A stretch of DNA of 64,000 nucleotides from Octopus vulgaris (GCA_951406725.2 OX597817.1:124000001-124064000); one strand, 5' to 3'. Shown: positions 9,130 through 62,589, counted from the stretch's first letter. Numbers and translations: made by a program. The notes: generated from the letters alone by a model not told the origin.

Positions 9130-9369
9130 ACTTACATTATTTACAATTGATGGATATTTGTCCTCATCTTGTTTGTTGTTAACACAGCATTTTGGCTTAT
9201 ATACCCTCCAGCCATCATCAGGTGTCTTGGGGAAATTTCGAACCTGGGTTCTCATTCCTAAGGTATTTTTCGATGCTATTATTATTATTAATATTCAGGT
9301 CACTGCTGGAATCGAACTCGGAATCCTGGGGTTAGTAGCCCGCGTTCTTAACCACTATGCCATATGCCC
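9130..9369 (-). mobile_element. tRNA-headed short element carrying a hammerhead-like motif (SINE/retrozyme-like)
   Basis: Minus strand: A box TGGCATAGTGG and B box GAGTTCGATTCC (9297-9369), (AAT)n spacer, then the hammerhead-like motif at 9181-9226. Confidence 0.7.
9181..9226 (-). ncRNA. Degenerate minimal hammerhead ribozyme-like motif
   Basis: GACAC-CTGATGA-T-GGCT-(12 nt)-AGCC-AAAATGCT-GTGTT: stems I and II pair, CUGAUGA is intact, the GAAA/stem III side is mutated. Confidence 0.6.
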
Positions 9370-11060
9370 AGTTACTGACTAATAAGAAGATAACTTACCC
9401 AATTACTGACTAATAAGAAGAGACAAATCTGTTGCCATAATTAGAGAAAATGGCTAATCAACTAATCAAGGAAGTTGATCACTACAAAGGAATTCATCAA
9501 TGTAAAATTTTTATTTCTAAACTAACACATAAACGAGACGTGTTTTCATGTTATAACAAAGGCATTCTATTAAGAGTAAAACTATTCTGAATTAAAACTA
9601 CCATCAAACAGACAGCACCTTTGAATTTACAAGACAGCCTTTCTTGAAACAGAGAGTTGGTGATATGATTAAGTCATTAAAGACATAAAATTAGTTGTTT
9701 AACTCTATATCAATCTTGATTCTATAAACTTAGGATCAAAGGCATTCTAGCCTTGAACATCTTGTCCTTTAAAGAAGATCAAAGCTGCATTGTCAAATGT
9801 ACCCTTTCTGTTATTTTAAGATGGTAGACTGTTTTGAAGAAGATTTGTTTGTTGAACAACAGTAAGTTGAACAACTGTACAGATGCTAAATCTTTGGGCT
9901 CTAAGTTGATCCATTTGTGATTGATGATAGATGAGGGCTCAAATCATAAAAATCTGAAACAATTAATTTTATAGCACAACACACTAAAGACAATGAACTA
10001 ATGGCATCACACTTTTAGTGGTTCTATATATTGGATGTGTGGAATGATGTTAATGGTATAAAATTTCTCGAAATTTAATGTTACAATGAAAGAAATGGAA
10101 TGAACATTGGATGAAAGATTTCAAGGAGATTAATTAACACTGCAAACTCATTATGGGATAGTTTCATATATTGCTGTATCTAATGCTAAGAATAATGCTT
10201 CCTATGTCAAAAGTAACAGCTCAGTTGACAACAAGTCTGTTAATGAGATAGGCTACACTGAGAAATCAGTGGAGAGGGTCTCATTATAGCTTAATGTCGA
10301 AATGCAAAATGGTTAGAAATGGGTTCAAAATTTGCAGTTAATTTCCTATATTTGAATATGAGGTTATATCATGAAAATTTGATTGTTACATGGCAGGCAA
10401 AATAGGAAGATTGTTGGAAATAATTTCCATGTTTGCTGTTATGATAAGTTAATTTTCTAAACTCTAAATGTAAGGTTATAAGCATGAATATACGAGTCTG
10501 ACACAGCAACAAAATAGTAAAATGATCAGAAATAGGATTAAAATTTGCTGTCTTTATGAAGTAGTTACCAATGAACTAAAATATAACAATAAGATTCAAT
10601 CCATTGGTGACCTGCCAAAATTTAAGCTTTATTGTGCTGCCAAAATCTTAACAACAGCTTTAGTAAACTATCGAAATTTTAGTTATGAGCTCTCTAGATA
10701 CATAAAATCCAATATTAGCAATAAAAAATATTATAAATATTATTTCATGGGAGTGGGGCAGCACTGTTGGTCGACATTGACCACTCAAGCATGCATCTAA
10801 GTTTCCTCTATCACTGTTGTAATCCAAAGAGAAGGTCAGTGTTTTGGGCTAATATTACTTAACACCAGTGTCATTGCAAGCATTGCTGTCAAAAGACAAA
10901 TAGCCAGAAAAAATATTGCAAGGCATCTCAGACTACCCTCCAAGAGAGTTGTTAATCCATCACCCTGAATTGGTATTTTTGTTACATACCTCAAAAGGAT
11001 AAAATGGGAATTTGACTTTAGTAGGATTTAAACTAAAAGGGCAGAAACTTGGAACAAATT

Positions 11061-11430
11061 ATCATCATCATCATCATCGTTTAATGTCCACTTTCCATGC
11101 TATCATGGGTTTGATGATTTGACTGAGGGCTGTCGAACCAGATGGCTGCACCAGGCTTCAATCTTGATCTGGCAGAGTTTCTACAGCTGGATGCCCTTCC
11201 TAATGCCAACCACTCCGAGAGTGTAGTGGGTGCTTTTATATGCCACCGGCACATGGGCCAGTCAGACGGTACTGGCAATGACCTCGCTCAAATGTTTTAC
11301 ACATACCACCGGCACGAGTGCCAGTAAGGCGACACTGGTAATGATCATGCTCGAACGGTGACTTTTATGTGCCACTGGCACGGAAGCCAGTTAGCCACTC
11401 TGGCAACGATCACACTCGGATGGTGCTCTT
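11061..11430 (-). mobile_element. SINE family C with internal imperfect tandem repeats
   Basis: (CAT)n tail, ctggatgcccttcctaatgccaacc, repeated tgcca(c)(c/t)ggcac...ctgg(c/t)aa(c/t)ga units. Confidence 0.85.
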
Positions 11431-12898
11431 GAAGTCTAATGACTCTACTAATTTTTTGTACATTGCTTTATTATGAGGGATTAAATATATAATACTATAA
11501 CGGGGAAATCCAACATCATAGAAAACTAGAGATAGTCTTCACTGTCCAAAATGAGCCAATATTAGTTTAGGAATTTATAGAAAATTTTTTAAATCAGTCA
11601 GCAGGATAGAAGCATAGAATATAATGCTTTATCTGAGAATTAAAATATAAACGAGAAACATTGAAGTTGAAGAAAAAAAATTGATGGGCTGGATAGAAGA
11701 GTGAAAGCATGGGAAGCTAAGGGGGAGAGAAAAAGATGACGGATTAAGGTCAGAAGTTGGCTTTTGAAGGTAGATAGATAGAGTGATGAACAGAGTTACA
11801 GTTAAGGTAACATGTCAAAGTTGGCATGGGCAACCTATTTTGAGAAGCAGGGCACATGAAGCACGGCATATTATAAGGTTGGCTGCACTACTAAAAAAAA
11901 CTTGAAGATAATTGTTTTTCAGCCATGATATTCAGGACGTCCAACAAGCTGAAGTTTACCCATGGAAGAGATAAAGAGTAGGTACATACAATACATCAAA
12001 TACATCACTTATAGAGATACAGTTACAATGATAGATTAGAAAAGAAAAGGGCAACAGTACAGGAGCACAGGCAATTTTCAATCATGGAATTATATACACA
12101 CACACTTTGTTTTGTTGTTGGCCTTTTCAGTAAAGTTACCTATTTACTTTTTCTCCTTTATGATTACCTAAAGCTCATGTAGAGGCTCCTATTTCAGGAT
12201 CAATAATTTTGGCTAGAGTGTTATTAAAGTTAGGAGGTTATCAAGTTATACGATTTATGGGTTTGTTTATATATATTTGGTAGTCCAAATCAGATATGCA
12301 ATCTATGTGGATGGCTTTTCAATACAATGTCGGGTTTAAAAAAGCTACATCAGGTGCCATGATGAATCTAAGGTGTAGTTATAAGAGGTTGTCAAACTTA
12401 GCATAAGAAGTAGACAACCACCATATACACATACATACATACATATATATATATATATATATATATATATATATATATATATACGTGCACACACACATAT
12501 ATATATATATATATATATATACATACATATACAGATACACACACACACACATATGACAAAGAAAAGATGGAATATATACAAGAATTTATTATTAATCATG
12601 ACAATTGTTTTGACACATCTAGCATCGATCCCTCATGGGTGGGACACTCAACAACTGGTTCGGGAGCATCTAGTAGTGCTCATGTATTTCATCAGGGGAT
12701 AAATAGACACAACTCATTAGAATAACAGATCTGCAATGTAACTTCTCATTTTGTAGAAAGGAAAGCAGCCAGATAGAGGAAATATCTTCATTTATATAGA
12801 AAATCAAAAATAAAATCATACACACACATGCACACATATATGTATATATATATATATACATACACACACACACACACACACACACATATATATACATG

Positions 12899-13190
12899 TG
12901 GAGGTGCAATGGCCCAGTGGTTAGGGCAGTGGACTCGCGGTCATAGGATCGCATAGACCAGGCATTGTGAGTGTTTATTGAGCGAAAACACCTAAAGCCC
13001 ACGTGGCTCCGGCAGAGGGTGGTGGCGATCCCTGCTGTACTCTTTCGCCACAACTTTCTCTCACTCTTTCTTCTGTTGGCCTGCTCGCTTAGCCAGCAGG
13101 GTGGCGTCATTTGAAGGCTAAAAACAATGCGAAGCGCATTGTGACCAGCGATGTGTAGCAACATCTGATAGCCTGGTCGGTCACGGTGAT
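12899..13190 (+). mobile_element. SINE family D (tRNA-derived head), tail type 1
   Basis: tggcccagtggttagggcagtggactcgcggtc head; gagcgaaaacacctaaag body; tail also present inverted at 47928-48047. Confidence 0.85.
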
Positions 13191-61076: not shown

Positions 61077-61406
61077 TAATTTTTGAGTTAGAAAACTGAG
61101 AGATCCAATAGATTAATTAATTTATTAATTAACATATTCACCTACAATTGCTTCATTTCACAACCAAAATTAAAATTACAAAACATATATAGATATATAA
61201 TTTTGCATTTTAAATAGCTTGTATGGAAAATCAACAGGGTGTACAAAGGACAGACAAGGTATTTAAAATGCAAAATCCTATATTCATATATGTTTTCTAA
61301 TTCTAATTTTGTTTGTGAAATGAAACAATTGTAGGCGAATATGTTAATTAATTAATAAATTAACTTTTATCCATTGGACCTCTCTGTTTTTTTAACTCGA
61401 TATTAT
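61077..61406. repeat. Fold-back inverted repeat, arms of about 150 bp, next to (TA)n
   Basis: 61077-61222 versus 61254-61406 (for example ttaattaacatattcacctacaattg / caattgtaggcgaatatgttaattaa). Confidence 0.9.
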
Positions 61407-61628
61407 TTACAATATTTTATATAATATATTAATTGAAGAAATATTTCTTCAAAATATACATTAAACCAGTGTATCTTGGATAAAAATATTCCTATAAGAG
61501 GTTTAAAGATACTCAGTGTGACTATATATATATATTTATATGACTGCTATTTCTAAATTCGGTGTGTGGTAAGGCAATTCGTTGCTAAACCCTTAATTGC
61601 TTAGTATATATATATATATATATATATA

Positions 61629-61900
61629 GGAAGAGTTTACGAAAAAAACAAAAGACGAAGACAGGTGGTGTAAAAAACAAACAGATGTATTAGTATAATG
61701 CTCAGGAATAAAAAAAGTATTTTACGTTTTGAGCCTACACTCTTCTACAGAAAGGGACACAGAAAAAACAAGGAGAGAAAAAAATGTGTGTAGTGGCTAA
61801 CGATCTATCATGGTGACTAGTGCCGGACAAAAGGGTCAAACACAAGAAGGAAAGTAGGGGAGATAACAAGGTAAAGATGACCCCCAACACAAAGGGTATC
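61629..61900 (-). mobile_element. Short element in (TA)n with hammerhead-like motif; same family as 29993
   Basis: Motif CTTT-CTGTAGA-A-GAGT-gtag-GCTC-AAA-ACGT-A-AAAT at 61719-61754 (minus). Confidence 0.7.
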
Positions 61901-62508
61901 TATGTGTAGATGTGAGGATGGGTGTGTGGGTGGTGTGTTGTGTGATGTTGTATGGTGTAGTGTGGTGTGGTGTGATATATATATATATATATATATGTAT
62001 GTATGTATATATCTATATGTGTATGTATGTATATATCTATACATGTATATATGTATATATCTATATGTATATATATATATATATGTATATATATATGTAT
62101 ATATCTAAATGCCTATATATATATATATGTATATATGTGTGTGTGTGTATGTATGTATGTATATATATATGTATTTATCAATATGTATATACATATATAT
62201 ATGTATATATATATGTATTTATCAATACGTATATATATATATATATGTATATATATATATGTATATATATATATATGTATTTATCAATATGTATATATAT
62301 ATGTATATATATATATGTATATTTATATATATATATATATATATATATATATATATGTATATATGTATATATAAGTTTATATACATATTCATATATATAT
62401 ATATACATATATATATATATATATATATATATATGTATATATATATATATATGTTTATATATTATCCAAGGTGTATGGTATTATATGTCCATGTGCCCAT
62501 TATGACCG

Positions 62509-62589
62509 ATCTTACCAATTGGTTTCCTGCTAGTGATTTAACAGTGTTAGGTAACAATCTGATTATGTAACCCTGCACTCATCAGAGAT
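62509..62589 (-). ncRNA. Type I hammerhead-like motif with canonical core
   Basis: ATCT-CTGATGA-GTGCAG-(long loop)-CTAGCAG-GAA-ACCAATTGGT-A-AGAT; GUA site; first stem II pair is G.G. Confidence 0.8.

Follow-up and report, generated by a model that had tools for sequence, protein, structure and literature searches.

Minimal hammerhead motifs in an octopus genome window as probable derivatives of Penelope-like elements, with a tRNA-headed, possibly SINE-like short form in one family

We analysed a stretch of 64,000 nucleotides from the genome of Octopus vulgaris, called the window throughout (GCA_951406725.2 OX597817.1:124000001-124064000; G000:C4:124000001-124064000 in our labels), which carries a dispersed set of small motifs built like hammerhead ribozymes. 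We give a probability of about 85% to the reading that Penelope-like elements (PLEs) are the source of these motifs, which are minimal type I hammerheads of their terminal repeats, likely inserted by the PLE reverse transcriptase (RT) and GIY-YIG endonuclease and in most copies since decayed, and that the short form of one family, here called A, is likely promoter-driven. Hammerhead swarms as such are already familiar from animal genomes rich in PLEs, and the observation is to that extent largely known. The new part, as sequence comparison suggests, is the short form of family A with its tRNA-like head.

The window has 33% G+C and is dense in microsatellites, in a genome of 2.8 Gb and 227 contigs. 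An earlier, sequence-only reading of it had listed at least nine motifs and placed them in about eight families of non-autonomous retroelements. All nine are present where that reading had put them, and we label them A (9181), B (30081 and 61719), C (32335), D (42479), E (42881), F (53337), G (54487) and H (62509). The list itself was incomplete, with two additional motifs found at 12595 and 14217. The strict hammerhead descriptor is passed by one of the nine window copies (F only), and 60 shuffles of the window average 0.017 matches.

Every motif from A to H belongs to a dispersed genome family, with 213 to 2156 first-look candidates each. In the family searches 40 candidates were scored per search, and majority sequences were built from 25-45 copies each. 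All eight majorities contain a stem I of 4-7 bp, a 7-nt core, a stem II of at least 4 bp, GAA, a self-complementary helix III and H, which restores the motif order that had been read from the window copies. The claim that stems differ between families while keeping their pairing holds as well: the majorities fold despite different stem sequences, and the changes within family C are paired on both sides.

In terms of cores, CUGAUGA is found in A, F, G and H, CUGAAGA in D, UUGAUAA with a U3-A8 pair in C, CCGACGA in E and CUGUNGA in B. The type I core CUGANGA...GAA, with stems and NUH, is present in the majorities of A, D, F, G and H; C is the U3-A8 form, E has C4 and B has U6. One extra base stands ahead of stem II in families A, B and E. 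The helix III repertoire comprises ACGU, ACUAGU, AUCAC-AG-GUGAU, AUCAAUUGAU, AUAUGCAUAU and ACCAAUUGGU. In all families the predicted energy of these palindromes favours a duplex of two molecules (-3.7 to -15 kcal/mol) over a hairpin (0 to -1.9). The minimal, dimer-type class to which the motifs had been assigned is supported.

Variation within families is of the kind seen in a ribozyme. Stem I of family C is ACA/TGT in 10 of 18 copies, GCA/TGC in 6 and mixed or wobble in 2, its palindrome occurs as ACTAGT, ACGCGT or ACATGT, and both elements vary on their two sides in concert. In family B the free positions 7 and 17 are variable, with G in place of H in a single copy out of 59.

We then looked at a genome sample of sixty 10-kb stretches at round coordinates, from 24 contigs (600 kb). 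The strict descriptor, whose core alternatives were fixed after the families had been examined, gives 24 matches there, seven of them in one array, versus 0,0,0,0,0,0,0,1,0,0 in ten dinucleotide shuffles. A comparison with shuffled DNA was among the checks proposed with the sequence-only reading, and its result favours the motifs. Ten family profiles yield 36 matches in the same sample (33 without cross-hits), and further families add 23, of which about 20 are distinct. Including decayed copies, and with six cross-hits removed, the 600 kb hold about 53 motifs. This density of 1 per 11 kb extrapolates to about 250,000 motifs in the genome with a wide error. The earlier figure of one motif per 7 kb is right for the window (1 per 6-7 kb), which is roughly double the genome average. 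At least eight additional minimal-hammerhead families were observed (L332, L349, L351, L373, L389, L224, L246, L087, L096, L272), some with a long stem II; their palindromes include ACGTACGT, ACATATGT, ACACGTGT and ACTGCAGT.

As for the architecture of the insertions, the families have fixed 3' ends, 90-230 nt past the core, and mostly variable 5' ends, which in family H spread smoothly from -30 to -817. Inverted upstream copies are present in 13 of 25 loci for A, 2/30 for B, 9/25 for C, 17/25 for D, 1/25 for E, 6/25 for F, 8/25 for G and 4/25 for H. The 3' end lies at a (TA)n tract in 26/30 loci of B, 23/25 of E, 14/25 of D, 14/25 of H and 2/25 of A. A fixed 3' end, 5' truncation, an inverted 5' copy and (TA)n targeting are described marks of PLE insertions in the available part of PMC8557442. 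The first three of these marks are found here, with inverted copies rare in B and E.

The Penelope link drawn for the window stands. Families A, B and H reach PLE coding sequence upstream. As judged from this linkage and from protein motifs, A, B, H and J (a family described below) are 3' ends of coding, endonuclease-bearing (EN+) PLEs, of Poseidon type in A, Neptune type in B and Hydra type in H and J. The notion of about eight non-autonomous families is therefore only partly right, as it does not hold for A, B and H; the search for a coding parent of C, D, F and G gave none, and E is unplaced.

Family B is the best documented case. Among 30 loci selected by the Neptune-type protein, 27 have B sequence downstream of the open reading frame (ORF) on the same strand, one of these without the motif part. 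The ORF-linked copies are 75-85% alike to the window's, and the window's own subfamily (L029) is also ORF-linked. At locus L269 the CX2-5CxxC finger ahead of GIY-YIG is present, which by motif indicates Neptune, and the GIY-YIG domain match (E 0.0036) is below the Pfam cut-off. The first window copy, at 30081-30116 on the minus strand, has the core CUGUNGA with U at position 6, a G12>A change and a broken palindrome, and lies in a short 3'-end piece of a Neptune-type PLE (~29992-30181). The second, at 61719-61754 on the minus strand, also has G12>A, in an element that runs from ~61629 into a CA-rich 3' untranslated region (to ~61975). We also observed at least 150 copies of a Neptune-type PLE at 92-100% protein identity, with frames up to 1047 aa and a U6 hammerhead (for example G000:C18:50458256 and C3:138499715).

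For families H and J the coding evidence consists of the endonuclease C-terminus only. A Hydra-type ORF end lies upstream of H in 3 of 25 loci; L200, considered as another such link, was rejected, its ORF piece sitting downstream. The window copy of H at 62509-62589 (minus strand; ACCAATTGGT, long stem II) has a broken 10.1-11.1 pair and is part of a 3'-end fragment of a Hydra-type PLE at 62466-62669. Family J is represented by an old Hydra-type remnant at 13747-14440 on the plus strand, in which the endonuclease C-terminus (13749-13985) is followed by the 3' region. This region holds one of the two motifs missed before, a decayed hammerhead at 14217-14303 on the plus strand, ~230 nt past the ORF end, with the family helix III ACTATTAGT. 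The same remnant, noted at 13767, had been named along with the proposal that PLE enzymes mobilise the window's families. That it drives any of the eight is not borne out; it belongs to an old Hydra-type family with a hammerhead of its own. The 13767 peptide matches the intact ORF at E 0.23, and the PLE identity of the remnant rests on family copies and motifs.

Family I (L250-L259) is a young Hydra-type PLE with intact frames of 828-862 aa, an Asn-rich linker and a 3' region longer than 2 kb, which carries its own hammerhead and ends 135 nt past the core. The motifs RIKWK, DKT, CTCRDKSNC, CYLC and CRH of L250 fit the Hydra definition (RWK, DKT, CxCX5C linker, CxxC, CxH), an assignment based on motifs. 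A Nematis label, first considered for I, H and J, was discarded, since the motifs point to Hydra instead. Pfam does not recognise the Hydra-type proteins.

Another group of families is built on repeated units. With 25 loci inspected for each, wrap-around unit periods were seen in C (~361 nt in 5 loci), D (447-477 in 12), F (357-442 in 8) and G (395-409 in 3), and there is no unit period in B and H. By this periodicity C, D, F and G are wrap-around units of 360-475 nt, of the kind known as non-LTR (long terminal repeat) retrozymes, inserted at more than unit length. ORFs near the motifs in L145, L147, L151, L125 and L132 were considered as parents and rejected, being separate or on the opposite strand. 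For family F in particular, the adjacent ORF in L145, L147 and L151 is on the opposite strand, and that of L132 ends in its own B-like tail.

In the window, the family C hammerhead at 32335-32377 (minus strand) has the U3-A8 core and ACUAGU, with U4>A, inside an element at 32152-32391 that is a portion of the 361-nt unit. The family D element at 41887-42690 (plus strand, unit of ~473 nt) is a partial tandem with an inverted 5' copy, flanked by (TA)n tracts; its hammerhead at 42479-42540 (plus strand) has the helix III ATCAC-AG-GTGAT and G12>A. The family F hammerhead at 53337-53395 (plus strand; ATCAATTGAT), which passes the strict descriptor, has U4>C and lies in an element at ~52986-53668 with a unit of 400-425 nt. 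That of family G at 54487-54531 (plus strand) has a broken stem I, in an element at 54338-54656 with an inverted arm and a unit of ~400 nt. Its palindrome is ATATGCATAT, not the ATAT given for it earlier.

Family E stands apart. Most of 25 copies share a 5' start near -105, usually directly after (TA)n. The window copy, for which no coding parent was found, is at 42881-42915 on the plus strand (core CCGACGA, extra A, ACGU), with G5>A and a broken palindrome, in an element at ~42687-43013 with an inverted arm. The D and E elements (41887-43013) adjoin via a short (TA)n tract and were possibly inserted into a common target.

Outside the window, an array at L330:2097-4768 (G000:C1 near 20.003 Mb) consists of young 359-nt units, 97-98% identical, with seven intact minimal hammerheads. 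Five of the motifs point one way and two are inverted, helix III is ACCGGT, and (TA)n tracts lie on both sides. For assays of cleavage or of RNA circles this array would be well suited.

Family A has a more elaborate upstream part. Above the motif comes (AAT)n and then a head of 72 nt that contains boxes A and B and aligns best, among 36 tRNA sequences, to this genome's tRNA-Arg(TCG) (z 7.2). The phage collection gave only a weak tRNA match (E 0.7). Head and A body occur together in 27 of 30 head-selected loci, and for 5 of 6 heads in the random sample. In L383, a locus of that sample, the coding sequence for RT thumb and GIY-YIG stops ~30 nt ahead of the head, and 38 of 40 scored matches cover the stretch from ORF end to head almost entirely. 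L308 and L450 have the order ORF end, head, hammerhead and tail, and L451 likewise, with the hammerhead part deleted. The A-linked ORF homologues carry the RT domain PF00078, and the absence of the CX2-5CxxC finger before GIY-YIG in L451 and L383 indicates Penelope/Poseidon by motif. Going by its alignment and position, the head is a tRNA-derived segment just behind the PLE stop codon (~30 nt).

The 3' side of family A is that of a PLE. The ends are PLE-type, without poly(A), 54 of 139 copies have an optional tail of ~30 nt, and the 3' end is common to an autonomous partner that is a PLE and not a long interspersed element (LINE). In the window the element spans 9134-9371 on the minus strand, with head, (AAT)n, hammerhead and 3' end, the short form, resembling a short interspersed element (SINE), of a Penelope/Poseidon-type PLE 3' end. 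The tRNA-derived head lies at 9298-9369 (minus strand), with both boxes and no detectable cloverleaf. The hammerhead at 9181-9226 (minus strand) shows G12>A and a broken palindrome, where the family has CUGAUGA, an extra A, a 5-bp stem II and ACGU.

The 5' ends of family A accumulate at the head. Among 53 sense copies in loci that were not head-selected, with inverted partners counted separately, 25 start at the head, 4 extend upstream and 4 begin inside it, while the repeat and the motif region account for 10 starts each. Of 65 copies found by box A, 61 cease to match the parent no more than 16 nt upstream of the box; the box-A pattern bypassed three known extended copies with damaged boxes. 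The commonest 5' end is ~7 nt upstream of the tRNA-like start (18/65). The 600 kb sample has one ORF-linked A copy versus 8-10 A matches. Assembled contigs of four runs, presumed to be RNA, cover family A, as contigs that carry no ends, strand or level.

Because the 5' ends pile up at the head, the short form suggests, in its simplest reading, an RNA of SINE-like kind that starts just ahead of the head, made by RNA polymerase III (Pol III) and copied by the Penelope machinery. We regard it as slightly better than an even bet that family A is a SINE born within a coding Poseidon-type PLE via a captured tRNA-derived Pol III promoter. Its short RNA (promoter, hammerhead and PLE tail) would be copied by the PLE's own enzyme and would account for about half of the tens of thousands of copies.

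The mechanism that we propose for the families in general starts with the PLE enzyme, which would nick AT-rich or (TA)n DNA. Copying of the RNA would begin downstream of the ribozyme core, at a constant point 90-230 nt away, and usually break off before completion, so that short 3'-end pieces remain, many of them with an inverted 5' copy. Tandem or circular RNA may serve as the template from which the units of C, D, F and G are mobilised in trans. Cleavage by the ribozymes would require palindrome-paired dimers, perhaps helped by protein. In family A, the internal tRNA-derived promoter in the terminal repeat would give a short Pol III RNA as main template, in effect a SINE with a PLE tail. Related observations exist for an anole PLE, where, in the available part of PMC11167929, reverse transcription starts internally and the motif cleaves with protein. 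Minimal hammerhead dimers are described as cleaving weakly in the part available of PMC4209133.

Several results weigh against this account. Eight of the nine window copies fail the strict descriptor, a wider decay than the "some copies" of the sequence-only reading. No linked ORF was found upstream of C, D, E, F and G in 25 loci each, by best DNA matches, which a rare or diverged parent could escape. In family B, U occupies core position 6 in 56 of 59 copies, and an A6C change at this position lowers hammerhead activity (PMC3088659). Ribozyme mutants of the anole PLE left in vitro insertion unaffected and the cleavage site was not the end of any read (PMC11167929, same part), and 8 of 9 Xenopus dimers failed to cleave (bioRxiv 2026.07.22.740005, in the part available). 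For family A, Rfam makes no tRNA call on the heads (in one search the head was clipped), and ARAGORN reports no tRNA in the window nor on the head majority, down to its 60% threshold. A T4 run is absent from the tallied copies of the family (0 of 7 with a run), which is not significant, 48% of shuffles being likewise without T4. Lastly, the head of the family A parent starts with a 12-nt near-palindrome that could itself set 5' ends.

This near-palindrome supports a different explanation of the 5' cluster, by fold-back of the cDNA on it or by a cut of the PLE transcript at the tRNA-like structure, the head then being a passenger without Pol III RNA. Inverted copies adjoin 73 of 100 heads, the ORF-bearing copy L308 has an inverted partner that terminates at the head, and palindromes at inverted PLE junctions have been interpreted as self-priming (PMC3846280). 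Against this explanation, boxes A and B are retained though the cloverleaf is lost, and the position ~7 nt upstream of the tRNA-like start is that expected of a Pol III start and not of an RNase P cut. Copies without an inverted partner begin at the head too. We hold this explanation to be possible, if doubtful. Somewhat unlikely, in our judgement, is that the PLE ribonucleoprotein uses the motifs as signals, for RNA pairing or for the binding of protein, with cleavage unnecessary. Because U6 is fixed in the B lineage, throughout its young copies with long frames, catalysis there may be weak or dispensable; family E has C4, and the anole PLE dispenses with cleavage in vitro. An alternative B core, with the frame shifted by 3 bases, was tried and rejected, since neither stem stays intact in it and the variable base falls on position 4. 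On the side of catalysis, the remaining catalytic positions, the covariant U3-A8 of C and the avoidance of G at position 17 are maintained across families, relatives of E with the canonical CUGACGA core exist in the genome sample, and the anole motif does cleave when protein is present.

That all eight families are independent non-autonomous ribozyme retroelements, as first proposed, we consider very improbable. The short wrap-around units of C, D, F and G, the common 5' start of E and the excess of the A short form over ORF-linked copies are in its favour. It conflicts with the extension of A, B and H into PLE coding sequence, with the H 5' ends, scattered like random truncation, and with the lack of a unit period in B and H; for B and H the ORF links refute it. 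Chance matches in AT-rich, microsatellite-rich DNA would agree with the degenerate state of individual window copies, and Rfam shows no hammerhead among the 150 listed of 407 window matches. The shuffle comparison (0-1 versus 24 matches) and the folds restored in the family majorities refute a chance origin, which we set aside as practically nil.

Compared with known systems, the octopus motifs resemble the minimal PLE hammerheads of Cervera and De la Pena 2014. The available part of that paper (PMC4209133) describes a short stem I, a palindromic helix III, the U3-A8 variant (here C), an extra base between positions 9 and 10.1 (here A, B and E), and many families per genome, mainly as single motifs from truncated PLEs with some opposite-strand pairs. 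It differs in reporting thousands per genome, whereas we extrapolate ~250,000 (the methods differ and decayed copies are counted here); palindromes up to 12 nt and the fixed U6 of B are further differences. The EN+ PLE clades Penelope/Poseidon, Neptune and Hydra (Craig et al. 2021, PMC8557442, in its available part) share 5' truncation, the inverted 5' copy, partial tandems, an optional tail of 30-40 nt and (TA)n targeting, and the supplement holds an octopus Hydra element with a hammerhead, Hydra-1_Obim. Its main text, however, has no tRNA-derived pseudo-LTR segment ("tRNA" occurs once, on selenocysteine, and "SINE" 0 times).

The units of C, D, F and G and the L330 array resemble non-LTR retrozymes, which in the available parts of Cervera and De la Pena 2020 (PMC7229834) and Li et al. 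2026 (bioRxiv 10.64898/2026.07.22.740005) are non-coding units of 350-480 nt with type I hammerheads, found from monomers to arrays, and are proposed to derive from PLEs. The octopus units, known here from DNA alone, differ in having minimal ribozymes and direct PLE marks (inverted 5' arm, (TA)n ends).

For family A, the nearest likeness is with the SINE-like Sm-alpha and Sj-alpha repeats of Schistosoma, in which a Pol III promoter (in family A a predicted one) is followed by a hammerhead (PMC6765202, in the part available). Family A, in contrast, is dispersed, has a minimal hammerhead and is itself a Poseidon-type PLE 3' end, and that part of the paper names no PLE parent for the schistosome repeats. 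The miniature retrotransposons with terminal repeats (TRIMs) Cassandra, Helenus and Ajax, called TRIMp3 (Kojima 2024, PMC10886601, in the part available), likewise have a Pol III promoter derived from a small RNA in the terminal repeat, with boxes kept and no functional RNA. They are LTR elements whose coding partners are without the promoter, whereas here the coding PLE would carry it and mobilisation would be PLE-type. The literature searched contains no tRNA-headed PLE or PLE-mobilised SINE; subscription papers, bioRxiv supplements or Repbase entries could contain one.

If true, family A would correspond, on the side of the PLEs, to SINEs mobilised by LINEs and to TRIMs driven by Pol III, and PLEs, like LINEs and LTR elements, would have Pol III-driven passengers. 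Its short form would also offer a natural minimal template of ~270 nt for what the PLE enzyme needs in trans. A comparison of the spread of U6 in B with the young intact PLEs and the young retrozyme array would bear on whether PLE hammerheads must cleave.

The second motif missing from the earlier list is a decayed hammerhead at 12595-12700 (minus strand) with a long stem II and the palindrome ACAATTGT, in an element at ~12553-12785; it is an 80% match to an intact motif of L115. An interstitial array of telomere-like units lies at 22056-22275. Fragments at 63190-63462 and 26903-27178 resemble what we take to be mariner/Tc1 transposases, and those at 16798-18270 resemble a decayed element, presumably a non-LTR retrotransposon. 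In L035, L036 and L052, copies of family A sit after the (AAT)n tail of an element similar to the latter, which we likewise assume to be non-LTR.

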